Origin: Geosiphon pyriformis uo1 | Lineage: Eukaryota; Fungi; Glomeromycota | DNA: 28,722 nucleotides | Direction of reading: 5' to 3' | Assembly: GCA_016748015.1 (NCBI GenBank) | Contig: JAAOMT010000672.1 | Location: 549,816 to 578,537, forward strand | Part shown: in pieces, positions 4,301-26,800 of the stretch | How the letters are laid out: each line of letters starts with the position of its first letter | How positions within the stretch are numbered: the first letter of the stretch is position 1 | Translations under genes and position numbers: made by a program | Notes under the pieces: model-generated | What the model was told of the DNA's origin: nothing | The model's input: the letters and a program-made list of their open reading frames with translations, nothing else | Database searches by the model: none

Positions 4301-6029
4301 CTTCCCATTCATAAGATTTGGGAATCATCAAGACCCATGCTTCCTTCCAAGGGCTAAGCACCAATTCTCCAGACAAACAAGAGTTCAAAAGCACTAGCAA
4401 CATATCCAGAACCGACTTATCACAGTGTTTTCAAAACTCATTTGAAATACCCAACAAACCAGCTGCTTTGCCATCTGGAAGATCAAAAACCACCCCAAAG
4501 AACTCATCATACCCAATTGAGCACATAACCCCAGAAAAAGCTTCATCAAAAACATATTCCAATGGTTGATATTGGTGACACCAATCAACCGAGATATCAC
4601 CAACCACCTGGCATTTCCTAGTCCAACTCTCCATGATTACATCCACCTTAGACTTAACCAGATCAGGTTCCAAAATCAATTCATCATCAACCACCAAATG
4701 ATCCAGCACAACCTTACAAAACAGGTGTTCCAATATACTTCTTATCATATGACCCTTATTTATTTCAAAGCTTTCATTCCTTCTGCTTATGACAAACCTG
4801 ATGTTTGTCTCTTTAGCGCTCTGAGACTCAACAAGCTTGGATGCCCGATAAGATTTCCTAACACCCAGAAGAGTAGAAAAAACATGACCAGATTCTACAC
4901 CAGAGTCCACCAGATCCTGAATGGTTGAAGCTTTAACACTGTCCAAAGAAGCCCAATGCTCCATGAGAGAAGCAAAATCTAAAGCACACCCTACATGAGA
5001 TGTCTTAATAATCTTCAAAACCAGAAGCTCCAATTTGTAAAACTTTAAAGAGTCTTTGGTAAAGACATCATTGAATTTCTTAAACCATTTTTTCTTGAAA
5101 ATCTCACCAGCTGAGAAAACCATTATCCTGCAAATAACGCTCCACATTGCATCCAAATCCAAAAGCCTCGCAACAGCATCAAACTCATCTGAGAACAAAG
5201 TAGCATTGGCTGATGTAGTACCTTTAAAACTGTTCCACTTAACCTCATTAGCACTCTTGAAATTGAATTTCCAATGGTTTCTATTTGCTTGCCTGTGAAG
5301 AGAATTTAACTGCATATCCAAAAGCCCACCCAAACCTACAGCCATTGAAACAGCTTAGTGATCCGTGTCAAAATGCTTACTGACATCCAAAACCTCACAA
5401 TTCACTATTACATCGATCAGATTTGGAGAAACAAACACATAGTCAATCGTCTTCATAACACCCCTAGAATTTGTCCAAGTGAGCAATTTTGAAGCTGGGC
5501 TTCCAGCCAAAGAATTCACCAGACCTAAATCTAGACACTTTTTAAAACTTACACATTTATGAGAACTGTCTTCATTGAAATCGCCACTGAGAACAATGAA
5601 GAAAGATTCATTAACAGCTTTTGCAATGAGAGAGTTGACTTTACCAGCCTGAGAGAACTGAACTGCTGAGAAAGCACCAGCATATAGTTCCAGGATAGAC
5701 ACCGAAAGTTTATTTTTGAAAAGTAATTTAATGGACAAGAGCCGACCAGGCACTTCTGAAACCTTGTACACATGTCTCGCCAAAGAAAAATTCATAACAA
5801 CCATGACACTAGCACCCAGATAGCCAGATTCCAAACCAGAGGTAAACACCTGTACACCATCAAATTTGTTGACAATCCAAGGGCGAATCTTTCCTTTTAA
5901 CTTTGATTCTATAAAAATAGAAACTAAATTGTTCTTTTCCCTATGCCAATGAATGACATTATTCTGTTTCGCAGAATTGTTCATTCTTCTGACGTTGCAA
6001 GTAGCAATATTCCAAATCAGATTGGTCAT
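1341..6029 (-). pseudogene. LINE ORF2 polyprotein (APE endonuclease - RT - RNase H - CCHC finger), about 1560 codons, one frame broken by 7 stops
   Basis: APE motifs: NIATCNVR, ESKL, GDFNE, TIDYVFVS, TDH. RT motifs: LIPK, PIAL, (Q)DMQKAYNSV, GLDQ..IFSPLLW, AFVD(N)TIW, YLGIFL. RNase H motifs: YTDGS, AELQAI, SDSQSA, KIKGHSG..RNEHAN. The C-terminus reads CLYCGEIEMSDHVFFC. Six ORF-track fragments (5' ends 6107, 5345, 4403, 4070, 3248, 1859) share one frame. Confidence 0.93.
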
Positions 6030-7816
6030 TGAGAAGAAGAAAAATTTAAGCCTGCACCAAAACTGTCCACTTTGGCCGAAAGGTCCAGAACTGTTTTCAT
6101 CAGACACTTAATGCTGTCTTCCAACTTGGACACTACAGATACATCAAAAAACATTGCTCCCGCAACAACCTCACCACTGGTGGCTGCACCCAAACTCTCA
6201 CTCATTACTATATCCACCTCTTAATTCTGTGATGAGGGGGTCACCAATGGCTGACATCTAGGGCTTGGCTGGGAAACCATTGACCCAAGTGCATCCAATT
6301 TTTTAGCCAGCTTACCCACCTGCTCTACGAGGCTGGCGAGACTGCGCTCAAAAGTGGCAAACCTATCATTGACTTCTATCGAAACCAGCAGAAATGACTT
6401 CATCTCCAAAGAGGAACCAGATTTCACAGAAACATTTCGTCCAGAGAGAGAGGGAAAAAAAGACCCACTAGCAACCTTTGCCCAAGAGAGACCACCAAAA
6501 GAGACTGGACAAGCAACTAGAGCTGATTGTTTGACATAGATGGCTGCCAATCTGCTTTTATCTGCATCTGACAGGACTTTATGCAAAGACAAACCTGAGA
6601 AATCTTTCCCACCAACCTCACAGCCCAATGATGTATGGCCTGATTTCCCACACTTGGCACACTTAGCTGAGACAAGACAAGACCAGCAGAGATTGATGCT
6701 CCTCAACACTGGTGTGGTTCTCATGATAACATCCAGTGATTCAGCAGAATCAAAACAGATGACAGCACACTTAGCTCTAGCATATGTAACCAGATAACAA
6801 TCGATGACACATGTCCTTCCACCTACTGAAACAATAAAATCCCAGATGTTATAAGCAGTTGTTCCTATTAGTAAAGTATAAAGCAGCACCTTATGCTGGT
6901 CCCTTGCATCCCATGATTCTTTGTCTAAATCCGATCTAGCTATCCACATAGCATCCTTCCCGATTAAGATTGACCATTTTGCCGTAACCAAATCGGCATG
7001 ATCTGATTGCTCAAACTCTACCACAACCTTCTGCCACAGCCCCACCAATTGCATCTTAATCAACTTAATTATCCCAAACTCGGAGAGCGCAATGTGCACA
7101 GCCTCAGCTGATGTTCTAACCAGAATTTTCTTCAACACCACAGCCCAATCTGAGTGACCAGCAGATTTTTTAAGATTGGTGTTTACCATAATTTTTGCAT
7201 CAGTAGCCATTTTGGTAGCTTTCACCAAACTTGATTCAGAAGTGAATGTTGCCCAGATGATCCCAGCAAATTTTGAGGGGGTAGAGACCCCCCCAAAACT
7301 ATTGATTCTTAAAAACAATTTTCTAACCACCACCAATTTCTTCTGAGATGATTTTCCAGTAATCTTGTCTAAGCCAATATCTAAAGCAAAAGATTTATGG
7401 ACAGAAATGGCAACCAACTTTTTGACAGGTGTGGGAAGTGCCAGCGGAGTATCAAGGAAAACATCATCATCATCATTGTTAAGCGAAAAATCAATCTTTC
7501 CCAATGGTTTGCCCAGTGCTTTTTTTGTTTTGACTTTTATACCCATAGGTGTCTGATCATGATCCCTTTCAGCAAGAGCACCACCTTTACTGTAGTCGAA
7601 ACTGGTTTCCTTTACAAGGCATTCCTCTTCTATGTTAACATTTTCAGACTCAGTGGTGTCACTAGCCTCAGAATGCCATGAGCTACTTTTCCGAACTTAA
7701 GGACTGATAACACTACCACCAGAACCACCTTCCAAAATCCCACCTTTTTTCTTTTTTCCTGAAAGAATAGATCTGAAGCTGCCACCAGAAACAAAAGCTT
7801 TAGCAGCTTTCTTCAT
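6026..7816 (-). pseudogene. LINE ORF1 (RRM-like nucleic-acid-binding protein with zinc knuckle and coiled-coil), 2 in-frame stops
   Basis: MKKAAKAFVSGG... from 7816 continues in frame into ORFs 6221-7546 and 6026-6217. An RRM-like segment reads AVVLKKILVRTSAEAVHIALSEFGIIK..WQKVVVEF. The knuckle CAKCGKSGHTSLGC is at 6620-6661, followed by a heptad-like FERSLASLVEQVGKLAKKL. Confidence 0.88.
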
Positions 7817-9226: not shown

Positions 9227-9230
9227 ACAA

Positions 9231-10097
9231 TGTTACGGTTTAAGAATTTAGCAAAAAGAATCATAAAAATAATACAAACTATTCAATCATAATATAGCAC
9301 AGTAATAATCTTAGAAAGATAATGATTAACATAGTAGCAAACACCATCTCGCGATAGTGGCAAGCACCAGTTCACAATAGCAGCCAACACCAACTGGTGA
9401 TAGCAGCAAACACCAGGTTGAAATATCAAAAAGAAAGTATTTTCTCATAGAACTACAAACATGTATATATACAGTAGTTTTAATATTGGGAAATAATCAA
9501 TCAAGTAATAAAAATCATAACTTATCAAGCAATAGATCCAATTTTATCCAACAAACTCCACTTTAAATTATACTTTCAAATTAAATATCCCAAGAAACCT
9601 TTAAAATCAAAAAGAAATGAAAAAGAATATTTAAAACTGAACTATCACAACCCAAAGTATTAAGAAACTTACTTTGTATTATTTATTGAATAAAACTATC
9701 ATTCATCAACTGAATCTCTTAAAAGAATAATCCTTGATCAAGATTATTCATGTTGTTACTAATTGATAAAAGCTTTATTGTGAGAATTAGAAAAGCGCTA
9801 AAGACCATTAACATTCTGTGTTTCTAGATTAGAGAAACACATCAGGCAATTGCAAGGATAGCCTCAAAGAAGACCCCAGACAGTGGGTAGATTTCAGTTC
9901 AGCCTTTGAGAAGGAGTACATAAACACACACAACAATCAAGAATTAAAGAATAACTTACATTACGACAGTAAAAAGAAAGCCTTCAGTGTAACAGTGACA
10001 TTATCACACAAATAGAATTGAGGAACTCACAAAAGACTGATTGCAATTAAAGCGGGATATCAGCAATTAAATATAACAAGAAAACCATCCCATAACA
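9231..10097 (+). repeat. 5' LTR of family A (867 bp)
   Basis: Reads TGTTACGG...CCATAACA and is near-identical to 18059-18687 plus 19030-19519. A TATA-like ATGTATATATAC lies near 9460. Confidence 0.96.
9331..9415 (+). repeat. Four 16-bp repeats (ATAGYRGCMARCACCA) with 7-bp variable spacers (23-bp period) in U3 of the LTR
   Basis: Units start at 9331, 9354, 9377 and 9400, upstream of the TATA-like box. The array recurs in the 3' LTR (about 18159-18243). Confidence 0.85.
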
Positions 10098-10099
10098 TT

Positions 10100-10117
10100 T
10101 GGTGAACCCTACAAGAA
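10100..10117 (+). promoter_or_regulatory. Primer-binding site TGGTGAACCC...
   Basis: TGG starts 2 nt after the LTR-terminal CA. It is complementary to a tRNA ending GGGUUCACCA (tRNA-Trp-like, tentative). Confidence 0.8.
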
Positions 10118-10179
10118 AAGAAAATCAAAAAAGAAATAATAATTAGCAATAATTCATTGCTAAAAAGGAAAAGACAAAA

Positions 10180-13100
10180 GTGGTGACAAAAACCCCTAAT
10201 CTTACTGTTCTTGAATTCTGCCGTGCTATTTACACACAAAATCAAAGTGATCTTGGATTACCAGAAAGGTGTTGTCCAGCAGAATCTGCCCTCACTTATT
10301 ATATTAACGCCAGAATAAATTATCATATAGGAAAGGAAGAAGAACCACACGACGCAAAACTTGGATTGTATAGAGAATTATCACAATACACTACAAAAGA
10401 AGTAGCAGTAATAGCCGCAACTATTGTCAAAATCCATTGAGAAATTGAGCAATATGCCAACGAAAATTTTCCAATATCCACAGGAAACACTAGGGAACAC
10501 GCCAACAAAACCAAAGAAAATTTAGAAACTAATCAGAAAAGTAACCAGCAAAAACTAGGAACACCAGCTCAAATGCCAAAGAAAACTGTCACTCAATCAA
10601 TAAAGAAACAACGTATTTATTCACCAGAAGATAAATCATACCATTTTTCACCAGAAAATAAGATACAAATTCCATTAGGAGCTGCATTATCATCAACATC
10701 AACTCCACAAACGCCAAGAACTCCTAGTTATATTGATAAAATTAAACAACGTAACTGGGGAGACATACCAATTACAGGAGGATATTCATCACTATTCCAA
10801 AACCCTCTTTTTCAGCCAAAATTTAGAACGGGGTTTGAAAACCGTGAAGAGGAGTCTGAATCAGAATCCGAAAAAGAGACCAGCGAAAAAACAATTACAA
10901 GACCAGTCACTGGAACAAGCAGCCAGTCCAGAAACCAAGAAACTCGTGATCAAGAGGAAGAACCAGATATAAGGGAAGCCACCTTTAGGAACACTCAAGG
11001 AAATATCATCCCACCTCCTCTTAGACCAATAAACCCACCAGCAGAAAACGGCAATGAAATGACCACACCATACATTGCAAGACTAACAGATTTCTCAGGA
11101 GAGGAAGAAGAAACGGACGTGCACACATGGCTCAGAGAAACACAAAAAGCCATCCAGGTAAATAACTGGAATGACCAAAGAGCAATTCAAACATTACCTT
11201 TCTTCCTGAAAGGCACAGCCGACTCGTGGTATCAAAGCCTGGAAACAAAACCCACGAGCTTCGCCGAATTTAAAAATGCACTCCTACAGTATTTTAGTGA
11301 CCCAAACGCCGTAATCCAACTACAGAACGAATTCAATACTATCAAGCAAAATACCAGTGAAACTGTTACCCAATACCTTGCTCGATTCAATCGAATTCGC
11401 CATCAGATTGAAGTGATTGAACAAGGATACTACACTGATCCTCAGGTTTTAAATCAGTTTATTAGAGGATTAAAAAGCAGCATTTTAGGAAGAGTACGCC
11501 CTGCCCACCCTAATTCCTTACCAGAAGCCGTTACACTCGCCAGAGCCCTTGAATTGGCCGAGAAAGAAGCTAACTATAGTCAAATGGTTAACATGGTAAT
11601 GGAGGAAAATAAGATAGAAACATTAGAGAAAAGAGTAACGCAATTAGGGGAGGAACTCTCTAAGAAAATAGAAAGTTACCTCATCCCGAATCTGAGAAAA
11701 AATACATACCAATCACCCCAAAGACACAGCCAGGAAGTCAGTAACAGTTGAAATAATTGCTTGTCGCGCCAGGAATTCAGAACAGAAACACGCGCCTGCC
11801 ATTTTTGCAAACGCGTAGGACATTTGATTAGTCAATGTCGAACGCGAATGATGCAGGAAGCACGTGAAAATAATTACTACGCGCCACCCCAAATGCCCAG
11901 AAACCAGTACATGCCAATACCACGCCAATATTCCACCATGTATCAAAATCAAGGAGCTTACCAGCAACAGCCCATGATAGCCAACCCGAATTGGCGTCCC
12001 GAGACCCGAAATCAGCCCATCTAGAACCAGAACACGTTGGTCCAGAGGAATCCAAACCGCGCCAGAACCAATCAGCAAACTAATCCAAACTACCAAAATT
12101 ATCAACAAACTTACCTTAATATACCGGAAAACCTAATCATCGGAAACAATAATGGTAGAAACATAAACAGAACCAAGAATTCCTCCAAATTGAGCCAGAC
12201 AATACCACCAGCAGTTGCCACCAAAGATAGCAGCCTCGCAGCTATTTTTCCTTTTGAATTAGAGAAAAACGAGGCTATGTTCAGTGGAGCAGCATTGGAC
12301 AAAAAATGCCCAATCACTGCTATGTATATAGAAGCCACTGTAAACAATACCCCAATCAAACTTATCTTAGACAGTGGATCTGCTAGAAGCATCGTAATGC
12401 TTCAACTAGTAAACCAACTGGGTTTCAAAGTTGATCGTGCTGTGACGTCCCAAATCATAACAGCCAATGGAAGTACAAAGCTGCCTCATGGCAAAATCGA
12501 CTCATTCCCTTTCGAAATTAACGGCATAGTAATACCTACAAAAGTATTAGTAATGGACACTACACAATATCAAGTGTTAGTAGGGAATGACTGGTTAACA
12601 AAAGCCAACGCCACCCTAAACTGAACCACCCAAGAGCTTCTGATCAATTATAATGGCCACCAGGCCAAAATTCCAGCCACTTGTGGCCACTTCCAAAAAC
12701 CCAGCGCCAACCAAAGACCTACCTTTGAATTTGAGGAAAATCTAGCACTACCAGCCATTGAAACCTATCAGCTCTCTTGGGTTGATGACCAAAGAACAGG
12801 ACTACCAGCCATACCAACGTGGACCAGCGAAGAAAGATCCGAATGGAACCAGGTAAGTTCACAAAGAAACCACCAGTGACACAGATCAAAGCTAGAATGC
12901 TCGGTTTGCAAGAAAAAACTCTCGTCTATGACTGCGTGCAGCACACCGGACGAAGACCCAAGAAATCCCACCCACTACTATTGTAACCGTTGTAACAAAG
13001 AAAAATACGGTTACCCAGAAAGACACGGAAAATAGAATGAGGAACCGTGCCTCGCTTGTGGAGAACTGTTACCAAGAGGGTGCGACTGGAACGACTTACC

Positions 13101-15888
13101 AGGCAGAGGAGGAACGTGTAACGCAACTTGCCAATACATGATCCTTATCTGTGACTGGGTAAGAGGAGGAACGCCGTTTGAAGCAGCATTCAACAGAGCA
13201 TTAAAAAGACTACAGCACTACTCACACGACAAGAACGAGTTGTACAACATCACACAAGCCAAAGTAAGAGGAGGAACCGCTGAAAAAATACAACGTTGGA
13301 AAGAGTCAGCCGAAATAGCCGACGAAGTTGCCAGCTACAACATGTTTGACCCAGTGGACGAATTCCAGGACTACTACCAACAACTATGCCCCACTCGACA
13401 AGAGCAAGAACAATACCTCGCCCAAATCAACACTTACTTCTGCAAAAACTGTCTCATCCCGTGCCAAAATCAGTGCTGTGAAGAGTGTCAAGATGAAAGG
13501 GACTTAGAAAGAAAAATGGAAATTAAGAATCAGCAGTCTTAAAATCAATCAATAAATTAACAAGATTCACTTGACGGTCCCAAGTCAGAAAAATTTGTAG
13601 CCTATACTGACCTAGAACAGGTGACCGATATCCGATACTTCGACAACGGGCACTTAGGAATAATACCTGAAAGAGCCCATCCAACCGACACCGGATTTGA
13701 TCTACGTTATCCGGAAGACCAATCCACAATGTTACCACCCAGGAGCATCACCAAAATCGACCTAAAAATAGTGGTTGAAATTCCGCCAGAAATAATGGTT
13801 CAAATAGCGTCGCGATCAAGCCTTGCGAAAAAAGGAATAAGCGTTCAAGGAGGAGTAATTGACTCTGGATACACTAGAAATTTGATGGTCTTGCTACAGA
13901 ACAATTCAGAAAAGCCTTATACCATTGAATCTAAGAAAAAGATTGCACAAGCAATTTTCCTACCATTGGTAAAAATTGGGAAATTTGTGCCAATAGAAAA
14001 TCGTGAGGAATTGTCACAAACAATGAGAGGAACTTTTGGTTTCGGATCGACAGGAAAAGGAATTGAAGCGAATTTCGCTGAAACAATAGAGGAAAAAGGC
14101 GAAGTAATTAAAAATGAGCGGTCCATCACACTCCTACCATATGAAAAATCAGAAATAAGAATAAAAAGGACAATTAAAGAAAAAGACCTAATATTTGAGC
14201 CCTACCCAGAAACTTGCCAACAGTTTCTCATAGGACTTACTAATCTTTTTATTTCAGCTGATAAAGCTCAATGGATAAAAATTCCTATCGCAAACACCAC
14301 AGAAGAACCCGTCTACATTCCGGAAGATATCATCATTGGATACCTCGGAACGGAGCTAGAAAACGCGTCAACACCACAAGAAATTTTAAATTTCCCAGAA
14401 ATCGCCCTCTACTGTGAACTCACTTCAATAAATTGGCAACAACCAGTAGAATACTATCAATTTACGCCAGAAGAATTGGCCAAATTAAACATTGGAACAA
14501 TGGATCCTGACCAACAGCGACAATTAAAAGCATTAATTTTAAAATACTCTGATATATTTTCAAGAAATGGTGAATTTGGAAAAACCAACTTGGTTCAACA
14601 CCAAATCCTCACTGGAGACGCCAGATCTGAAAAACAACGCACTTACCGTGTCCCACCAATAGAGCATAATTTTATCAGAGAAGAAGTCCAAAGCATGTTG
14701 GAAAAAGGAATAATACAACCATTAATAAGCCCATGGTCCTTACCAGTTGTTTTAGTAAGGAAAAAGAATGGAAAAATTAGATTTTGCGTCAACTATTGCA
14801 AACTAAACAGCAAAACAACCAAAGACTCATACCCAATACCATTAATTGACGAAATCTTCAACGTTTTTGGAGGAGCAAAATGGTTTTCTACACTGGACTT
14901 GACCAGTGGATACTGGCAAGTGGAAATAGACCCAAAGAACAGGCATAAAACAGCATTCACAATACAAAATGGCAATTATGAGTTCAATATAATGCCATTT
15001 GGATTAACAAATGCTCCCGCGACATTCCAAAGACTAATGGATGTAATTTACTCCAGAATCCTGTGGCAATCTGTTGTTGTCTACTTGGATGATACAAATG
15101 TTTTCTCGTTAAAATTCACAGATCATCTCCAACATTTACAACAAGTTTTTAAGAGATTGAAACATGCTGGACTTAAACTAAATCTAGAAAAATGTTTCTT
15201 TGGGAAAAATGAGCTAGCATTTTTAGGACATGTAGTTGGAAAAGATGGAATAAAACCAGATCCATCAAAAATAGACAAAGTGGAAAATTTTCCAGTACCT
15301 CGAAACATTTCAGAAGTTAGAAGCTTTTTAGGACTCGCATCTTACTACCGCCACTTTGTAGAAAACTTTTCAAACATCGCCAAACCCCTTAATTGCCTAC
15401 TATCTAAAAATGTGAAGTTTGAATGGACTGAAGCACAACAAAAAGCTTTTGAGTACCTTAGACAAAAGCTCATTGAATCACCAATAATAATCTATCCAAA
15501 TTTCAACAAGAAATTCATTTTGACCACAGATGCCTCTAGAACTGGACTTGGAGCCATTCTGTCACAAAAAGATGATAATGGAAGAGAACGTGTAATTGCT
15601 TATGCCAGCAGAAGTCTCAGTACGGCAGAACAAAACTATGCAGCACATGAACTTGAATGCTTAGCAGTAGTCTGGAGTTGTATTCACTTTGACACATATT
15701 TATAGTACCAACCCTTTGAGATTACAACAGATCATAGAGGTCTGGTCTGGTTAAATAACAAGAAAATGCTAAAAGAAAAATACACCAGATGGTCACAAAT
15801 GTTAGCACTATACGATTATATTATCAAATACAAAGAAGGTACCAAAAATGCTAATGCCAACTGTTTGTCAAGAATAAGACACACATAA
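10180..15888 (+). pseudogene. Single-frame Gag-PR-CysRich-dUTPase-RT-RNaseH polyprotein (about 1900 codons, 9 internal stops, no frameshift)
   Basis: ORFs at 10180, 10573, 11761, 12037, 13138 and 13621 are all in one frame. Gag reads FSGEE..VHTWL..W.D.RAI..LPFFLKGTADSWY, with knuckle CHFCKRVGHLISQC (11797-11838). Protease reads ILDSGS (D at 12370). RT reads LDLTSGYWQV, MPFGLTNAPATFQ and YLDD. RNase H reads TDASRTGLGAILSQ, YASR, ELECLAVVW and TDH. The true start codon is uncertain. Confidence 0.93.
13630..14055 (+). CDS. dut: Trimeric-type dUTPase domain within pol, between protease and RT
   Basis: All five motifs appear in order: TGFDL, RSSLA, GVIDSGYT, KIAQ, RGTFGFGSTG. Confidence 0.95.
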
Positions 15889-15919
15889 AAAAATCACCAA
15901 CCCACCCGCCACAACAACA

Positions 15920-17298
15920 ATGAACAACCACCTTTACAAAAACCTCAGCCAATACTTGGAAACACTACAAATAGACAAAAAAATGCCAGTAAAAGAGCTA
16001 ATTAAGCTCCAAAAATTAGCAAAACACTATTTCATTCAAAATCACATACTTTATTACTGGAATCAACAAAATCCAGATAATCCATTAAGAGTTATAACCA
16101 CAGATGAAAAAGAAACTATTTTATTTAACATGCACTCAGATATTCATTCAGGCCACTTTGGAAAAACAGCAACCATCCAACGTGCAACTAGCCATTACTA
16201 TTGGCCAAAAATAAGTTCAGACATAATCCAATACATAAGAAATTGTGACCCATGTCAACGAAAAGGAGGAGCAAAAACAACGGAATTATTAAGACCAATA
16301 AAAGTTGGACAGCCATTGGACAGAATCAGAATTGATTTAGTTGGACCCTTACCAATAACAACAAGAAACAACCGTTATATTGCAGTAGCCATGGACTATC
16401 TCACCAAATGGCCAGAAGCTAGAGCTATTAAAACAGCTAATGCTATTTCCATAGCTTAATTCATACATGAAGACTTAATTTGCCGACATGGATGTCCACA
16501 AAAATTGCTATCAGATCAAAGCACACACTTCATAAACAGCACCTTAAAAAAACTTAGCCAAAAATTTGGAATCAAGCGACCACTGTCATCACCATACCAC
16601 CCTCAAACAAATAGATTAGTTGAAAGATTTAATCGCACATTATGCAAATCACTGGCAAAAATTAGTAACGAACATGAAAAAGAATGGGATTTGTTCATAC
16701 CAGCAGTACTACTAGCATATAGAACAGTAAAACAAGATACTACACAATTCACACCATTTGAACTAGTTTATGGAAGAAAAGCCACATTACCTGTTGAACT
16801 TACTATCCCAACTTATCCAAGTGACACTATCACGGAAGCAACATTCCAGGAAACACTACTTAGAAAAACATACAAATTAATGGGAACTTTAGAAAACAAA
16901 AGAAGAAAAGCAGCACAAAATATTGAACAATCACAAGAACAACAAAAAGTGAGACATGATAACCAGTTACCAGATAATATAATTAGCTACAAATTGGAGA
17001 TAAAGTATTGTTGTATTATACAAAAATGGAAAAACAGTGGAGTGGAAAATTTGATCACAAGTGGGATGGACCATTTTATATTCACAAAATACTTGGAAAT
17101 AGAGCATACAAGCTAAGATTAGATGATAAAATATTAAGAAAAGCAGCACATAGTAACCAGCTGAAATTCTATTACAGTAAACCAGTAATAACAACAAAAA
17201 CACCCAGAATTAGAACACAATTACTTTTAATTCTACCAGAACAAATTCCACGAGATTTAGAACCATTAGTTTTAATTGAACATTATTCGAAAAGATAA
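15920..17298 (+). pseudogene. Integrase (HHCC - DDE - GPY/F), in a different frame from RT/RH, with one stop (16457) and one frameshift (about 16993)
   Basis: Motifs: H..IHSGHFG...YYWP...CDPC, IDLVGPLP, DYLTKWPEA, SDQ.THF, YHPQTN.LVERFNRTL, TPFELVYGR. The C-terminus YK(I)GDKVLL..KWDGPFYI is restored by adding one A. Confidence 0.93.
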
Positions 17299-17340
17299 TT
17301 AATCTTAGATCACAGCAAAAATGATTTAACAATCATAAAA

Positions 17341-18045
17341 ATGCATGCAAAAGATTCCAAAATAACAGTCAAAATTAAAACAATGATATTTATTCCAGAA
17401 AACATCAACAATATAACTCAACAATTAGTTGAAAGCTTACAACAATTAAAATCCGATCTAGAAATCACAGTTAATAGCTCCAAAATAACATACATAAAAA
17501 GAACAATAGAAAATCCAAAAAAAGAACATAATTTCGAACCATATAATATTGTCAAATATAACAACAAATTTATTAGCAAGGTTATTGAAAAATTAGAGAT
17601 AGCATTGGGCAATACATTAATAATGGAAGAAATAAAAATAAGTGAATTAACACCAGACACATTTAGCAACTTGAAAACAAAATTTCCAATTAATTACTGT
17701 TATTATCAACTAGGAAAGCACTTGAACATACAAACATTATACTCAAAAGACTCAACTAGAGTGTTTGACAAAACAACTATCCAACTATTAGAACCTTTTA
17801 TTCGAAAAACCAACACTACATTCCATTCAAAAACAGTTTAGAGAATTTTCAAAGCATTTGAAAACTGTCACAAATTATTGTTGGACCCAACCATGAACAT
17901 AATAACAACCAACAGTATTGGACGACTTACCAACTCGCAATTTCAAGAATTACAACAACAAATTAATAACACAGTATTGAACCACTATAGTAACTTAAAA
18001 TTTAATGAAGAAATTAACTTCAATTTTGATGGAGCTCAATCTTGA
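17341..18045 (+). pseudogene. ORF3 of unknown function (about 234 codons, one internal TAG) between integrase and PPT
   Basis: The ATG at 17341 reads to TAG 17839 and continues in frame RIFKAFENCHKLLLDPTMNIITTNSIGRLTNSQFQEL...NFDGAQS* to TGA 18043-18045. A homologous C-terminus lies at 21123-21345 (-). Confidence 0.8.
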
Positions 18046-18055
18046 AAGGAGGGGA
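18044..18055 (+). promoter_or_regulatory. Polypurine tract GAAAGGAGGGGA
   Basis: A purine run ends 3 nt before the 3' LTR TGTTAC at 18059. Confidence 0.92.
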
Positions 18056-18058
18056 TAA

Positions 18059-19519
18059 TGTTACGGTTTAAGAATTTAGCAAAAAGAATCATAAAAATAA
18101 TACAAACTATTCAATCATAATATAGCACAGTAATAATCTTAGAAAGGTAATGATTAACATAGTAGCAAACACCATCTCGCAATAGTGGCAAGCACCAGTT
18201 CACAATAGCAGCCAACACCAACTGGTGATAGCAGCAAACACCAGGTTGAAATATTAAAAAGAAAGTATTTTCTCATAGAACTACAAACATGTATATATAC
18301 AGTAGTTTTAATATTGGGAAATAATCAATCAAGTAATAAAAATCATAACTTATCAAGCAATAGATCCAATTTTATCCAACAAACTCCACTTTAAATCATA
18401 CTTTCAAATTAAATATCCCAAGAAACCTTTAAAATCAAAAAGAAATGAAAAAAAATATTTAAAACTGAACTATCACAACCCAAAGTATTAAGAAACTTAC
18501 TTGTATTATTTATTGAATAAAACTATCATTCATCAACTGAATCCCTTGGAAGAATAATCCTTGATCAAGATTATTCACGTTGTTACTAATTGATAAAAGC
18601 TTTATTGTGAGAATTAGAAAAGTGCTAAAGACCATTAACATTCTGTGTTTCTAGATTAGAGAAACACATCAGGCAATTGCAAGGATANNNNNNNNNNNNN
18701 NNNNNNNCCAAAATAACAGTCAAAATTAAAACAATGATACTTATTCCAGAAAACATCAACAATATAACTCAACAATTAGTTGAAAGCTTACAACAATTAA
18801 AATCCGATCTAGAAATCACAGTTAATAGCTCCAAAATAACATACATAAAAAGAACAATAGAAAATCCAAAAAAAGAACATAATTTTGAACCATATAATAT
18901 TGTCAAATATAACAACAAATTTATTAGCAAGGTTATTGAAAAATTAGAGATAGCATTGGGCAATACATTAATAATGGAAGAAATAAAAATAAGTGAATTA
19001 ACACCAGACNNNNNNNNNNNNNNNNNNNNTCAAAAAGAAATGAAAAAAAATATTTAAAACTGAACTATCACAACCCAAAGTATTAAGAAACTTACTTGTA
19101 TTATTTATTGAGTAAAACTATCATTCATCAACTGAATCCCTTGGAAGAATAATCCTTGATCAAGATTATTCACGTTGTTACTAATTGATAAAAGCTTTAT
19201 TGTGAGAATTAGAAAAGTGCTAAAGACCATTAACATTCTGTGTTTCTAGATTAGAGAAACACATCAGGCAATTGCAAGGATAGTCTCAGAGAAGACCCCA
19301 GACAGTAGGTAGATTTCAGTTCAGCCTCTGAGAAGGAGTACATAAACACACACAACAATCAAGAATTAAAGAATAACTTACATCGCGACAGTAAAAAAAA
19401 AGCCTTCAGTGTAACAGTGACATTATTACACAAATAGAATTGAGGAACTCACGAAAGACTGATTGCAATTAAAGCAGGATATCAGCAATTAAATATAACA
19501 AGAAAACCATTCCGTAACA
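18059..19519 (+). repeat. 3' LTR of family A, assembled in two overlapping pieces around N gaps
   Basis: 18059-18687 matches LTR nt 1 to about 629. 19030-19519 matches the LTR 3' part and ends CCGTAACA followed by the TSD. Confidence 0.9.
18688..19029. other. Two 20-N scaffold gaps enclosing a 302-bp duplicate of ORF3 (17357-17658)
   Basis: N runs lie at 18688-18707 and 19010-19029. 18708-19009 matches 17357-17658 with 2 visible transitions. Confidence 0.92.
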
Positions 19520-19523
19520 ACAA

Positions 19524-20172: not shown

Positions 20173-21122
20173 TGTTATAAGTAATTATTTGGGATGTTAA
20201 AATAAATAACAAACTCATAACTTGGTGCTTAATAGCTAATAATACTGTTGATAGTTTCTGAAAATTTTTTGGATTTAAAAGTTTTGGTTAAGTTTTTTGT
20301 ATAATAAACAGATATTTACTTAATAATAGTTTTTTTAAATTTTTTTTTTAGTGTAAAGACTAGTTTAATTTTGTAATTATGTCTTTTTAATAAGCTATCT
20401 TTAAATTTTTACTCTTGTTTTATAAGTTTTTTACAGACTATTTTTGATATTAATATTTTAGTACTTAATTTTTTAATCAATTAATACACAATATAAAACA
20501 AAAAATAAACAAAAAATAAACAAAAAAAAACAAAAAAAAAACAAAAAAAAACATAAAAAATTAGTATTTTATCAATAGTTATAATCAAAAACCATTAGTT
20601 TAGCATAGTTAAGTTGCTAATAAAATTGAGAAATAATAATGTTGATCTAATAATAAAATGACATAAATTAGATGATAAAACAATAATTTTATTTAATATT
20701 TAAATAATTTTACTTTAAGATATAACAAACTATCTTTTAAAAGAAAAAATATGTTATAAATATTTATTGTTAATTAACTAAAAACTTATCAAAATGTGAA
20801 TTAAGTAAATTGAATATTTTGAATATTTTTTAAATATTTTTTTTTACTTTTAATACTATTGTTATATATACATAATTTCTATTATACAAGATTTTACACA
20901 TTCCTATTTTTTTCTATGTTATTTTCTAAAACTGTGCTTATTTCTAAACAATATGTTATAATTTCTTAAAAATGTATTGTAATTTCTGAAAATGTGCTCA
21001 TTTTTTGTAAATATACATATTCTTAAAAATATGTTTATATATTGAGTACTATTTTTTTATTGGCCTATTTTTCTGATTTGTTTTTTTTATTTTTTTCTTG
21101 TACTTTTTTTCTATAAGTAACA
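20173..21122 (-). repeat. Family B 3' LTR (about 950 bp), minus strand
   Basis: The minus strand reads TGTTACTTATAG...ACTTATAACA and is homologous to 21474-22396 and 23861-24780. It is preceded by an eroded PPT. Confidence 0.85.
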
Positions 21123-21345
21123 TTATTTTTTCTTTTAATATTAAGCTTTATCAAAATTTTTATTTTGAATTAATTTTATTCCTTCTTTTTTCAATATTAT
21201 GTATTTAATTCTGGTTTTTAGATTTTCAAATTGAGAATTGGTCATTTTTTTTATTGGTTAACTATTATTGTTTCTATATTTGTATACAGTAGTATCTTTG
21301 AATAATTTTAAAATATAATATGTAATCAATAGATTGTTTTGATAT
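21123..21345 (-). pseudogene. Family B ORF3 C-terminal remnant plus eroded PPT
   Basis: Translates as IKTIY*LHIIF*NYSKILLYTNIETIIVNQ/IKKMTNSQFENLK...NFDKA*. The DNA aattttgataaagcttaatattaaaagaaaaaataatgttac matches family A aattttgatggagctcaatcttgaaaggaggggataatgttac. Confidence 0.8.
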
Positions 21346-21473
21346 TATTATTCATAGAAAAAAAATACGAAAAAAGATAAAAAAACAGATCATAAAATAA
21401 ACTAATCAAAGAATAGTATTCAATAAATAAGCACATTTTTAAAAAATTATGATACACTTTTAGAAATATACAC
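21346..21473 (+). repeat. 5' fragment of another family B LTR, interrupted by the next insertion
   Basis: TATTATTCATAGAAAAAAAATACG matches the LTR-B start TGTTACTTATAGAAAAAAAGTACA and is followed by the first GCACATT repeat units. Confidence 0.62.
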
Positions 21474-23860
21474 TGTTATTTGTTGAAAAGTACAAGAAAG
21501 AAAATAGGAAAAACAAATAAAATAGATTAATAAGGGAATAAAACTTAATAAATAAGCACAATATTAAAAAAATTATGACATATTGCTTAGCAATTGGCAT
21601 ATTGTCAGTAAATTATGGCATATTACTCAGCAATAAGCACATTGTCAGAAAATTATAGCATATTGCTTGGCAATAAACATATTGTCAAAGAAAATAGGAC
21701 ATATTGCTCAAAAAAATATGAGATTTTATATAACAAGAATTATGTATATATAGTAAAAGTATTAGAAACAAAAAAGATAGAATTAATACAAACAAGATTA
21801 GTTACAATCCATTAATTATCCAATACTTTTTTCTTCAAAAAATAGTTTTCTATAACTTAAAGTGAAATTAACTTACATATTAATAAAATATTAATTATTA
21901 TCTAAAATCCATGTTACTATTACTTGATTAAGAAATATTAATTAATTCTATGCTATTAATACTCAATGTTAATAAAATTTAATACTTAATTACACTAAAT
22001 TAATAGCTTTTGATTATAAATATTGACAAGATACTAATTTTTTATTTTTTTTAGTTTTTTAGTTTTTTTTATTTTTCTTGTTTTATTTTTTGTTTATTAA
22101 TTGATTAAAAAAATTATGCACTAAGTATTTGATGTCAAGGATAGTCTGATAAAAAAAGAGTAGAAATTTAAGGATAGCTTACCAAAAGGACATAATTGCC
22201 AGAATAAACCAGCTATTATGTTGAAAAAAAAATTCACAAAAAAAACCATCAATTAAATCTTTGTTCATTATACAAAAGACTTAACCAAAACTTTTAGACT
22301 CTAAAACTTTCAGAAATTACCAACACTACTAGTTATTAAGTACCAAGTTACAGATTTGTTATTTGTTTTAACACTTCCAAATAAGCACTTATAATATTTG
22401 ATGCTTCCTATGAGATATAATCTAACAGAAAACCAGCACTAACATTAACCATTTGGAAAAGTAGTAAACGAAGAAATTATAGGAGAAAATTATTTAAAAT
22501 TTGCGAAATTTTTATTTCAATATTATCAAACCCAATATAGACTAACAAATAACAATTGGCCAATAGAATCAGCTTTCAATTTCTACATCAACAAAAAAAT
22601 TAAATCTTATTTGGAAAACCAAAAAGATCCAGAAGCTGCTCTCAATAATTTCTACAGCAAATTATTCTAAAGCATTACAATTTCACCAAATTATTTGTTT
22701 ACATTACTAATCATAGAAATAAACAAAAAAATTGAAAAATATATCTAAAAAAAATTTTTTATTACTTTTGCAGATAAGAAAAATTTATATATCTTAACAA
22801 AAATATTAAAAAAAATACAAATACTTAATTAGAAAAAACCAAGAATTATTTTACTTATTTATTTATTATACTATTATATATTAGAAAGTACTATATATAT
22901 ACTATCAGAATCCACATTACCATCAATTGTGAAAACACTATTACTCAAAGTATTATTTCAAAATAATTAAGAAAAAGCTAAATTATTAAGAACCTATAAT
23001 GATTACTTTAAAAAATTTAGATCATAATCAACAACACCATTAAAACTTTAATCATTACTACTCCAATCAAATTTCAAATTTATCAGTCATTAAAAAGATA
23101 TTAATTCAGAGAAAAAAAACAGCAATCAAGAAAATAATAATCAAAATCTGATCCCAAATAATCTGAAAATACAAACTCTAATTGTTCTAACTTTGCCAAA
23201 TCTAAATAATCTAAACTCTGTTCTTATTATTTAGCAAAACTTATCTTCAGTTATTGTGATCAATCTATTAGTTGCATTAATTGTCTTATCACAACAATGA
23301 TTTCAATAACAATTATAACAACAACAACTAATATTAATAATATATACACTTATTGCTAAACTCAAAAAATACATTGGCAAAAAAAACAATGCTTAAGCAT
23401 GATTAAATGATGTTATCAAAACAATTACAGCCAATAATTAAAATAATGTCAGAGTCTTTTAAGCTATTTTTTACTACTTATAAGATACTATTAACTCGTG
23501 ATATTAGAATCTCATCAACAAGCCACAAATTTTTAATATGTTTAAAACTGTATTTTTATAATACTTTAGCAATTATAACAGTATTAATTAGTTATTAACT
23601 AGTTTTGCCACAATTAAACAAGGCAATACTGAAGCAGTTACTACTTACTTAAAATGTTTTCACAAAAATCTGTGCCAAATACAGGCAATTCAAGCTGATT
23701 ACTTTATTAAGACACAAATCTTAAACCAGTTTATTTATAGATTATACAGTAGTTTGTTACAATAAGTATGTTTAATACACTCAAATATCTTTTAAAATAC
23801 AGTCATACACACCAGAGATTTTGAATTAACCAAACTCAAAGCCAATTATGTCTAAACCAT
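21474..23860 (+). mobile_element. Family B copy 1: 5' LTR (21474-22396), eroded PBS and decayed gag, interrupted at 23861
   Basis: TGTTATT...TTATAATA is followed by TTTGATGCTTCC. The gag relic reads GENYLKFAKFLFQ..WPIESAFNFYINKKI...QILNQFI..RDFELTKLKANY. Confidence 0.85.
21555..21712 (+). repeat. About 20-bp tandem repeats (GCAYATTG core) in U3 of the family B LTR
   Basis: About 8 units, e.g. gcatattgtcagtaaattatg and gcatattactcagcaataa. Equivalent arrays lie at about 23935-24090 and 20915-21045 (-), each followed by TATGTATATATA. Confidence 0.8.
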
Positions 23861-26800
23861 TGTTACTTATAAAAAAAAGTATAAAAGAAATAGTAAGAAA
23901 AATAGACCAATAAGAAAATAGTATTGAGCATGTAAGCACATTGCTGATAAATTATGGCATATTGCTCAGCAATATAAGCAATGTCAGTAAATTAGGACAT
24001 ATTGCTTAACAATATAAGCAATATCAATAGATTAGAGCACATTACTCAGCAATATAAGTATTGCTTAAGAAATTATGAAAAATTGCTCACAAATATATAA
24101 AATCTTATAAAACATCAATTATGTATATATAGCAAAAATGTTAGAAGCAGAAAAGAGAAAACACACAGCTAGAATTCTCAGTTACAAAACACAATTAGAA
24201 GTAGTTCAAAATTCATATTACATATTAATAAATTATCAATTACTATTTGAATTTATGTTATTATTGCTTGATTAAAAAATCTTTATCATTTTTACTCTAT
24301 TAACACTTAACTATACAAAAACAATAGCTCTTGATTACAGTTATTGACAGGATATTAATTTCTTCTTTTTTTTATTTTTTTTTATTTTTTTATTTTTATT
24401 TTTATTTTTTGTTGTTTGTTGTTTACTAACGAATTTAAAAGATTAAGTATTAATTAATTGATGTCAAGAATAGCCTGATAAAAGATCCAGAAATAAGAGT
24501 ATAAAACTCAAAAATTAAGAATAACTTACCAGAAAAGCATAACTGCTAAAATAAACTGGCCACCATGCTAAAAAAAGAAATTAACAGAATAAGCATTTTG
24601 AAAAACTACTAAAACAACCATTAAATCTCTGTTCATTATACAAAAAACTCAACCAAAAATCTTCAGATATGAAAATTTTCAGATACATAAATTTTCAGAT
24701 ATTACCAATCATATTACTTATTAAGTACCAAGTTATAAATTTGTTATTTGTATTGACACTCCAAATAATTACCTGTAATATTTGGTGCTCTTTGTGAAGT
24801 ATAATCTAGCAAAGAACCAATATTAACAACAACCATCTAGAAAAGTAACAGACCAAAAAAGTATAGGAGAAAACTATTTAAGATTTACAAAATCTTTATT
24901 TCAGCAATACCAAAGTCATCTTAAATTAACAAATAACAATTGGCCAGCAGAATCAGCTTTTAATTTCTATATCAACGAAAAATTAAAGCATATTTAAAAG
25001 CCCAAGAAAATCTAGAATCTGTTTTTAACAACTTCAACAGTAAATTATTCCAAAACATTACACTTTTACCAAACTATCTGTTTGCATTAACAATTACAAA
25101 AATAAATAGAAAGATTAGAAATTACATTTAACAAAAATTTCTCATTACTTATGTAAATAAAAGCAAAGAAAAATTACAAACACTAGCAGAAACACTAAAA
25201 AAAATACAATCACCTACTTGGAAGAAACCAAAAGTTGTCTCTCTTATACACTTATCATACTATCATATTCCAAGAAATACCATTAACATAATATTAGCAG
25301 GCATGTCCACATCAACTGTGAAATTACTAATAGCTAAAATTCTATTTCAGAGTAAACTAAAAAAAGCAAAACTATTGGGAACCTATGGTAAGTATTTCAA
25401 GGAATTTAATTTATGACCTACAATGCTATCAGAACATTGGTCACCATTACGACAACTGGATTTTGGAAATACCAGCCCTTGGGAAAGAACTGATTTAGGA
25501 GAAGAAGAAGATAAAAATCAGAAATTTAATTACCAAAATTCAATCTTAGAAAATCTGAAAATACAAACTCCAATTATTCTAACTCAGCAAAATCAGAACA
25601 ATCTAAACTCCAATCTTATTATTCCTCAAAACTTATCTTCAGTAATTGTGATTGATTTACCACCAGTTGTCTCAATTGCCAAACAACAACAACAACAACA
25701 ATAGCTCTAATAATCACTTCAATTACCACTATCATAACAACTGTTATTAATAGCATATACACCAATTGTCAAATTAAAAAAATTCAACAGCAAAGAAAAC
25801 AATGCCCAAGTTTAGTTGAATAATATCACAAAAGCCATTACTGCCAATAATTGAGATAATGCCAAAGCTTTCCAAGTTATTCCATATTTTCTCCAGAATA
25901 CTACCAATTTATGATATCAAAACTTGATTTAAAAGCCCCAAAATTTCAATGATTTTAAAATTGAATTTTTGAAATACTTTAGTAATAATAATAGCATTAA
26001 TTATTTCACAACTGTCTTCACTACTATCAAACAAAGAAAAACTAAAGTTATTACTATTTACCTAAGACATATTTATAGAAATCTGCACCAAATACAAGCA
26101 ATTAATGCAAATTATTTTACAGCACAACAGATTTTGAATTGGCCAAGCTAGAAACTAACTATGCTCAAGTTATTAATCTAGTAATGAACAGATCATCTGA
26201 CTTGAATTCCAAATTGAAACAATTCAGTAATTTTATTAATCAAAAATTAGAGAAATACTTAGCTAACAATCAAGCAATTTATCAATCTTCACAATGTCAC
26301 AATAATCCAAGAAACCCAAATTATTTTTAAAATTAACTGCATCTATTATTAACCAATCAACAGTAGCAACAAGAGATATTTAGTTGCTACTATTGTGATA
26401 AACAAAAACATCTACAAATTGACTGTCATATTTGGTTAAATAATCAACAATTGGAAAATCAATATTAAAATTCCAATTACCAATTTTAAACTCCAAACTA
26501 TCAGCCAAACTAAGACTAATATCAGTCTTATTATTTACCAATAATACAACAAGCAATATATTTACTGCCAATTTATTAATCTTTAACATTGGCAATATAT
26601 CAATTGCAGCCTCAAATTATCTATCAATCATAACAACTTTAAATACCACCACCAAACTCAGCTTAAATGACAACCAGAAATCAAAGACTAAGGATCATTC
26701 ATACCTGACAAAACTGGAGATTGGCAATAGTAATACACCAACCAATTTTTAGTTCCTTAAATCAACCATTAAGATTATGCCAACAGAGTTTGGATATTGG

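Follow-up and report, generated by a model that had tools for sequence, protein, structure and literature searches.

A dead Ty3/Gypsy retrotransposon of Geosiphon pyriformis with a separate integrase gene, a non-envelope ORF3 and accessory modules of differing age

The stretch of DNA analysed here (the window) comprises 28,722 nt, positions 549,816 to 578,537 of contig JAAOMT010000672.1 from the glomeromycote fungus Geosiphon pyriformis uo1. At its centre, on the plus strand at 9231-19519, lies a long terminal repeat (LTR) retrotransposon, here called element A. It starts with TGTT and ends with AACA, and is bordered by a 4 bp target-site duplication, ACAA, at 9227-9230 and again at 19520-19523. 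The empty site is also present in the sequence data; of the 21,411 contigs of run X1 that were matched to the window, three join the flanks of element A directly. The 5' LTR (9231-10097; 867 nt, TGTT...AACA, with TG...CA ends) is followed after 2 nt by a primer-binding site starting with TGG (10100-10109), and a polypurine tract (18044-18058) lies directly 5' of the 3' LTR (18059-19519). The latter is split by scaffold gaps into two pieces, 18059-18688 and 19030-19519, and between two runs of N a 302 nt piece of ORF3 is duplicated (18709-19010), likely an assembly artefact. The interval 18689-19029 consists of scaffold gaps and this duplicated piece, and the true length of element A is ~9.7 kb. 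The 5' LTR differs from the two 3' pieces at 11 positions in 630 nt and 20 in 491 nt, transitions throughout bar one indel.

Gag, protease (PR), a Cys-rich module, a dUTPase, a spacer, reverse transcriptase (RT) and RNase H (RH) occupy a single frame, 10153-15888, with nine internal stops. Pfam matches were obtained for the capsid, PR, dUTPase (E 4.5e-23), RT, RH and integrase (IN). The capsid (Ty3_capsid, Retrotrans_gag), together with a Met before it, lies at 11059-11553, a CCHC zinc knuckle visible in the sequence at 11797-11838, the aspartic protease at 12328-12600, and RT with RNase H at 14755-15888, ending in a TAA at 15886-15888. The stops at 15703-5 and 17839-41 are not common to all copies; other copies differ there. 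The RT/RH is of Gypsy type, as the Pfam matches RT_RNaseH and Ty3_capsid indicate, and its 120 best matches are Gypsy-type polyproteins. The ends expected of Ty3/Gypsy elements (Metaviridae) are all present (TG...CA LTRs, target-site duplication, primer-binding site, polypurine tract), and the domain order, Gag-PR-RT-RH-IN, is as in Ty3/Gypsy. Its ends, domain order and RT identify element A as a Ty3/Gypsy LTR retrotransposon, of which it is a dead copy. Pfam gave no chromodomain match at E up to 1 in P0002 or P0003, and in the tree described below the RT of element A is placed apart from the chromodomain-bearing row. Element A has a non-canonical Pol organisation and is neither a chromovirus nor env-bearing.

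The departure from the canonical organisation concerns the integrase. In Ty3 and Tf1 it forms the C-terminal part of Pol, whereas in element A Pol stops at 15886-88 and the integrase (15920-17298, plus strand, with H2C2, rve and SH3-like parts) is a separate ORF with its own ATG at 15920, 31 nt after the Pol stop and in another frame. A preliminary description of this DNA, which listed IN after Gag/PR/RT/RH, missed this; the Gag-PR-RT-RH frame ends after RNase H. Near 16990 the integrase has a frameshift that roughly two thirds of the X1 depth at that point lacks. No family-wide indel was found at the Pol/integrase junction among the rows listed. In an RT-RH tree of 86 rows (quick method, 36 short or redundant rows dropped, without named GyDB references) element A falls in a 31-row group made up of 30 ORFs without integrase, element A included, and the partial protein P0032; one more integrase-less row, from a short contig, falls outside. 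The group includes Rhizophagus clarus, and proteins of R. irregularis cluster with P0219. A scan of genome contigs gave 80 metagenome loci, 26 of them nearest to the clade of element A. The integrase is separate in 18 of these, fused in none and not shown in 8; of the remaining 54 loci it is fused in 36, separate in 12 and not seen in 6 (two of the 54 were unassigned, having no RNase H). What tells against the clade is its support, which is modest, in a quick tree with 36 rows dropped (SH-like approximate likelihood ratio test, SH-aLRT, 81). Four clade members, P0338, P0339, P0348 and P0349, are labelled as a Bacillus metagenome-assembled genome in NCBI, probably through bin contamination.

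Eighteen Pol/integrase junctions were compared, from 17 loci and element A (L021 was omitted as permuted). A similar Met-led helix begins the integrase in all 18, and all three frames are used. The distance from stop to ATG ranges from -14 to +727 nt; seven of the 18 fall between -14 and +5, among them two with ATGA and one with TAATG. Since all three frames occur and the distance varies, a fixed frameshift for integrase expression is excluded. The junctions suggest that the integrase would be made by ribosome restart after the Pol stop, or from a subgenomic RNA. Victoriviruses, hypoviruses, SART1 and LINE-1, in the accessible text of PMC5972666, likewise express a downstream ORF at an overlapping stop/start or across a short spacer (63 nt in LINE-1). 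Those systems are RNA viruses or non-LTR elements, whereas in the clade of element A, where we infer restart, an unfused integrase of an LTR element must reach the particle.

The alternative to restart, that the integrase (and ORF3) come from spliced or internally started subgenomic RNAs, is possible, if rather less probable. Foamy virus Pol is made from such an RNA and provides a parallel. The remaining 11 of the 18 junctions, with 30-727 nt between stop and ATG, suit a spliced or subgenomic RNA better than restart and so weigh against the latter; the longest gaps reach 524 and 727 nt. In addition, an unspliced 745-nt contig of run X3 (see below) spans the end of ORF3 and the start of the LTR, and a covarying hairpin ending in ACAG lies 7-33 nt 5' of the integrase ATG in five sister loci (L007:2238-2275, L028:3298-3335, L030:2799-2836, L035:4464-4501 and L038:5193-5230). 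All nine pairs of the hairpin are formed in 5/5 loci, three of them with changes on both sides, and no Rfam match was found in the four of the five loci that were scanned; it is a candidate translation or splice signal. The hairpin is missing from the window, however, no sense-strand GT-AG joints occur among the run rows listed, and the stop and start overlap in the seven close junctions.

ORF3 (module 4; 17383-18045, plus strand) encodes a soluble, basic protein of 220 aa. Its maximum 19-residue hydropathy is 1.05, it has 2 Cys, and a scan of the sequence found no transmembrane segment and no RxxR (furin) site. ORF3 is not Env, because it lacks a membrane segment, and its 'env position', as the preliminary description called it, carries no functional meaning. 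An envelope or fusion protein, making element A infectious and errantivirus-like, would fit the location between integrase and polypurine tract, and there the likeness ends; with the features just given, an all-helical soluble family model for its relatives and no match to that model in BFVD, the Env reading is largely refuted and must be regarded as highly improbable.

All six ORF3 matches are named Geosiphon pyriformis, and the Geosiphon protein P0060 carries a diverged C-terminal piece of ORF3 (E 8e-12). The slot is occupied in 8/8 clade loci having at least 500 nt 3' of the integrase, and seven of these eight ORFs form one family by leave-one-out comparison (25-75 bits; L021 scores weakly), with relatives of 143-230 aa. 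The structure model, which is that of L016 (149 aa) leading the family and not of the ORF3 of element A itself, is all-helical (predicted local distance difference test, pLDDT, 86.7; predicted TM score, pTM, 0.83). It has no significant match in PDB, BFVD or VIA (best Z 6.7, root-mean-square deviation (rmsd) 6.9, 89 aligned), which is no proof of a new fold. The ORF3 profile found nothing among PDB sequences at E<=10, and the module and ORF3 profiles nothing in the 80 metagenome loci at E<0.05. The ORF3 of element A scores 16.1 against the family, compared to at most 5.9 in 1000 shuffles, and shares motifs and slot with it. Two results detract from this assignment: the link amounts to 8-16 bits, with element A among the top three non-training matches in 6/7 leave-one-out runs, and hhalign gives P 0.014 and a probability of 3%. 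It is therefore probable, not proven, that the ORF3 of element A belongs to a lineage-wide family of small helical proteins. One clade member has a fourth ORF between integrase and ORF3 (L004:7458-8255; 266 aa, coiled-coil-like).

The Cys-rich module (module 2; 12880-13524, plus strand) follows the protease. Family comparison and modelling give ~215 aa with several conserved CxxC pairs around a helical bundle; the multi-CxxC domain described earlier is real, and the ~300 aa then given to it include a linker beyond the conserved core. It has conserved Cys and Trp columns across families and is likely zinc-binding. All seven matches of a first search were named Geosiphon pyriformis, and a search with representatives found 259 proteins at E<=0.001. 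By nearest reference the best 150 of these divide into A 33, B 25, C 36, D 45, ENA-like 8 and unassigned 3, and of 20 among them looked up, picked for divergence, 17 were named Geosiphon and three were ENA-only. The references share 29-51% identity, B and D being the nearest pair. One ENA-only protein, P0032, is a partial but uninterrupted PR-Cys-rich module-dUTPase-RT ORF, with identities to element A of 47% in the Cys-rich module, 60% in PR, 58% in dUTPase, 64% in RT and 33% in the spacer. The module gave no match below E 0.1 in the 120 RT relatives or in 161 loci; beyond three or more families of Geosiphon and the three ENA-only proteins, it was not encountered.

The predicted structure of the Cys-rich module has pLDDT 71 and pTM 0.36, the latter value speaking against the reading given here, and it has no significant match in PDB, BFVD or VIA; the best on this low-pTM model are Foldseek E 0.32 and Z 5.5 (rmsd 3.7, 61 aligned). 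In sequence searches the best Pfam E for P0004 was 0.038 and the best PDB-sequence E for the Cys-rich profile 0.16; PHROGs gave nothing below E 0.04 for three window modules, and no relatives of P0004, P0032 or P0215 appeared in viral contig scans. Several sisters (P0217, P0224, P0239, P0256, P0261 and others) carry a different Cys/His-rich tail of 200-400 aa after RNase H, that of P0224 without a Pfam match. Homology of the Cys-rich module to this tail was rejected (E 0.077).

Module 3, at 13660-14055 (plus strand), is a dUTPase. Its match to the five-motif fold family is full-length (Pfam positions 4-129 of 129) and 77 PDB sequences were matched; on sequence it belongs to the trimeric dUTPases. 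The domain is mobile among the sequences compared: L014 has it between PR and RT but lacks the Cys-rich module, and in P0214 it follows RNase H. A viral contig scan with A3 gave one dUTPase-only locus. Between dUTPase and RT lies a conserved spacer of ~150 aa (14074-14520, plus strand) without a family match; that it might be a second dUTPase was rejected (p 0.02-0.69 in four comparisons; no Pfam match).

A dUTPase within Gypsy elements, including between PR and RT, has been described before (PMC2864245, PMC6431247, in the text available from each). Among fungal Ty3/Gypsy elements, the portion of PMC2864245 available describes one in PosPlaTy3-5, where it lies between PR and RT, in Phanerochaete elements and in Tuber Tmt1. 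That paper groups its dUTPase elements with chromodomain-bearing ones, whereas element A has no chromodomain; element A further differs in having a Cys-rich module 5' of the dUTPase, a separate integrase gene and ORF3. The bdelloid rotifer elements Juno, Vesta and TelKA (PMC5408684) and planarian Burro (PMC6431247) resemble it, as far as the available extracts go, in combining a dUTPase with ORF3s other than an envelope gene or with numerous accessory domains; the ORF3 products there are of GDSL, DEDDy, coiled-coil or membrane type, whereas the ORF3 of element A matches no family or fold searched. The dUTPase arrangement was thus already known from fungal, rotifer and planarian Gypsy elements. 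No description of the lineage was found in the literature searched; Repbase, GyDB and the transposable element (TE) library of PMC11952901 may hold it.

Module 1 (10168-10506, plus strand; ~113 aa), defined by family comparison, occupies a matrix-like slot ahead of the capsid. Its identity between families is 23-31%, compared with 41-46% for the capsid. The frame has no ATG 5' of module 1 in this copy, the earliest Mets being at 10573 and 11059, and a non-AUG or LTR-derived start is possible. Five Geosiphon gene models reach module 1 by splicing or from upstream sequence, and a Met stands directly 5' of the capsid in several families. A Pfam scan of element A gave nothing at E<0.01 for module 1, the Cys-rich module or ORF3; module 1 in isolation matched PAZ_2 at E 0.0037, under the curated cut-off. 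In sister elements (P0215, P0217, P0219, P0224, L035:6804-7436) the slot is filled by an H...CxxC plus helical domain or by another helical type, and homology of module 1 to these domains was rejected (hhalign E 0.46). Since sister elements have other domains in the slot, module 1 reads as a variable matrix-like Gag extension. A Gag N-terminal region rich in short Cys/His repeats was also seen at L005:1-2916.

The window holds further copies of a second family, B. On the plus strand, copy 1 (21481-23860) is truncated and has an LTR at 21481-22396, module 1 at 22491-22766 and capsid at 23352-23849; copy 2 (23861-28722) has an LTR (23861-24780), primer-binding site, module 1 (24839-25149), capsid, PR (26893-27444), Cys-rich module (27644-28285; E 4e-77) and dUTPase (28456-28716; E 3e-10), where the window edge cuts it. 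The two module 1 copies match at E 8e-16 to 5e-7. Both plus-strand copies end before ORF3 and are without it. On the minus strand a family B 3' end (20173-21349) consists of an ORF3 remnant (21349-21201), an eroded polypurine tract and an LTR (21122-20173); the LTR ends of this piece and of copy 1 were set by eye. The remnant is a broken C-terminal part of ORF3 some 80 nt 5' of the B LTR, scoring 57 compared to 31±5 in 2000 shuffles. A profile of family A ORF3 only found nothing in family B; one of A and P0060 together matched the remnant at E 3e-5 and 1e-3. The primer-binding sites of the two families diverge after five letters, in agreement with the preliminary description.

That description had proposed four accessory modules, old, retained and conserved in both families. 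The modules are real and each has a family B counterpart, though for ORF3 this is only the broken remnant. Age and retention were borne out: the modules recur, at 29-51% identity, in at least three families, and P0032 has both dUTPase and Cys-rich module uninterrupted. The four were not, however, inherited together as a set. A lineage-wide distribution is probable for ORF3, whereas the Cys-rich module and module 1 were encountered only in the sub-lineage of element A, and sister elements have other domains in similar slots. The modules differ in age. When they were put through the profile and structure comparisons then suggested, the dUTPase was identified by Pfam, and the Cys-rich module and ORF3 gave no significant match.

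Family A is probably also the source of an antisense RNA. Runs X2 and X3, from two studies, contributed 20 and 21 contigs compared to the 21,411 of X1, and because the contigs are so few these runs were taken as RNA despite their labels; a fourth run, X4, contributed none. From their RNA-like contigs 17 introns of 68-201 nt were placed on the minus strand across 9453-15905. Twelve joints occur in both X2 and X3, and at every one of them the X1 depth is 0 (13 joints listed of 54); a further joint, in the LTR, is present in X2 and corresponds to a loose end in X3, and X2 alone has another four. All 17 placeable introns read CT..AC on the plus strand and hence GT-AG on the minus, with donors such as GTAAGT. 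In both runs 14425 is joined to a 28-30-nt piece ending at 17983-85, a putative 5' end or short first piece (17956-17985, minus strand); in X3 the loose end beyond 17983 is adapter-like, and we take it to be adapter. X2 and X3 differ from the window at the same letters, and the source is another, less eroded copy of family A. Several points weigh on the other side: X2 is labelled 'DNA?' and X3 'RNA? (probably DNA)', only contigs were available so that strand comes from intron polarity, 4 of the 17 introns had to be shifted by 1-4 letters to reach GT-AG, and the joint 14425/17956 is not GT-AG. Three further X3 joints at 14751-15548, not GT-AG and with 32-nt sides, probably belong to another family and were set aside.

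The spliced antisense product has no long ORF (best frame 43 stops in 1154 codons), and a protein-coding antisense gene was rejected at 43-68 stops per frame. It is conceivable that the RNA is a selected, element-encoded copy-number regulator whose splice sites are kept under the coding sequence. In keeping with this, there are 17 introns, mostly with strong donors and the same joints in two studies, and the deepest family A contig of both runs stops at 17983-85, just upstream of the 3' LTR. Strong donors are not enriched, however (14, compared to 10.0±2.7 in synonymous shuffles, p 0.10). The antisense strand, being rich in U, is intron-like, and the letter differences shared by X2 and X3 indicate a single source locus. 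Such a regulator seems unlikely. The introns are most simply read as cryptic splicing of a U-rich strand, and the RNA is likely a non-coding antisense transcript of family A spliced at cryptic sites. The antisense transcripts of Drosophila HeT-A/TART (PMC2615633) and the TE antisense long non-coding RNAs (lncRNAs) of Blumeria hordei (PMC10648671) are, in the text available, also intron-containing, without a long ORF and tied to RNA silencing; the antisense GT-AG introns and lack of a long ORF in family A match them. Family A differs in having 12-17 introns over LTR, gag and pol, whereas fewer than 1.9% of the Blumeria lncRNAs have more than five exons, according to the same extract of PMC10648671. 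Internally deleted family A variants occur in X1 DNA contigs (joints 16236/18008, 15509/18390 and 15891/17752), and the deepest X2 contig crosses the LTR into the 16236/18008 deletion, which suggests tandem copies or an assembly join.

Repeat-induced point mutation (RIP) directs C-to-T change at CpA. Among the 69 C/G differences listed for the best-supported rows, 39 are at CpG, 17 at CpA, 7 at CpT and 6 at CpC, and CpA does not dominate, unlike in RIP. CpG makes up about a tenth of the remaining C sites, yet provides 39 of the 69 differences, which fits decay of 5-methylcytosine to T; CpG methylation is thus likely to drive the C-to-T erosion. Against this erosion the accessory modules were earlier supposed to act as counter-defence factors, for instance a silencing suppressor, an anti-methylation factor or a chromatin reader. 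The modules are indeed kept across diverged families, erosion is strong (CpG observed/expected 0.07 in family B), the antisense RNA suggests active silencing, and the folds that the Cys-rich model matches, weakly (E at least 0.3), are those of zinc-finger, LIM and RING domains. R. irregularis, moreover, methylates CpG and makes small RNA at TEs, as the text available from bioRxiv 2021.03.30.436303 reports. No homology to known suppressors was found, however, and elements with all four modules are themselves eroded. Deamination of 5-methylcytosine to T is not blocked by dUTPase, which lowers dUTP and cannot act on a loss that falls mainly at CpG. A counter-defence role is unsupported and improbable; the antisense RNA and the module structures without a match leave room for it.

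It is more probable that the accessory parts serve the element's own replication; on this view they would be likely to act as follows. The integrase would be translated by restart after the stop of the Gag-PR-Cys-rich-dUTPase-RT-RNase H frame, and soluble ORF3 is the third gene. The protease would free the Cys-rich module as a zinc-binding particle protein, and module 1, translated from an LTR-derived or non-AUG start, would extend Gag as a variable, matrix-like part. ORF3, small and mostly basic, may bind nucleic acid of the element or assist in packaging the integrase, which is not fused to Pol. The dUTPase would keep uracil out of the cDNA; dUTPases guard against uracil incorporation, as described in the available part of PMC4531489. 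In at least one other family A copy, probably internally deleted, antisense transcription would begin close to the 3' LTR, and cryptic splicing would give a non-coding RNA that feeds host RNA silencing. Taken as a whole, this account (a dead Ty3/Gypsy element of three genes with separate integrase, non-envelope ORF3 and replication-serving accessories, antisense RNA from another family A copy, and erosion through CpG methylation) appears to be the best explanation, with a probability of about 0.62. A bolder version must be called doubtful: a Metaviridae lineage of arbuscular mycorrhizal fungi, tricistronic and not yet described, with a free-standing integrase packaged in trans, a lineage-wide ORF3 of new helical fold for packaging or anti-silencing, swappable zinc modules and copy number controlled by an element-driven antisense RNA with many introns.

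In textbook Gypsy elements the integrase is delivered as part of Gag-Pol. A lineage with a separate integrase needs another solution for translation and packaging, and the short junctions of intact relatives make this testable. Two protein families, those of ORF3 and the Cys-rich module, have no match in the libraries searched; the ORF3 family is modelled with confidence and is amenable to assay. For work on transposon silencing in mycorrhizal fungi, the antisense RNA is a tangible starting point. If the bolder version held, complex retroviruses would have a counterpart among fungi in this lineage, whose genus has a genome that is 41% LTR sequence; with 41.2% LTR sequence in the G. pyriformis genome (PMC11952901, in the text available), the element lineage bears on genome growth in these fungi.

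In the rest of the window an LTR-like start is seen at 83-100, its first 8 letters the same as in the LTR of element A. ARAGORN found no tRNA genes, and Rfam gave 0 matches across the 20 sources scanned. On the minus strand, 1563-7696 is a decayed element resembling a long interspersed nuclear element (LINE), with RNase H (E 1e-10) and RT (E 2e-6), its upstream ORFs being without a Pfam match. Many Geosiphon 'hypothetical proteins' are mis-spliced pieces of LINEs and of the LTR elements described here.

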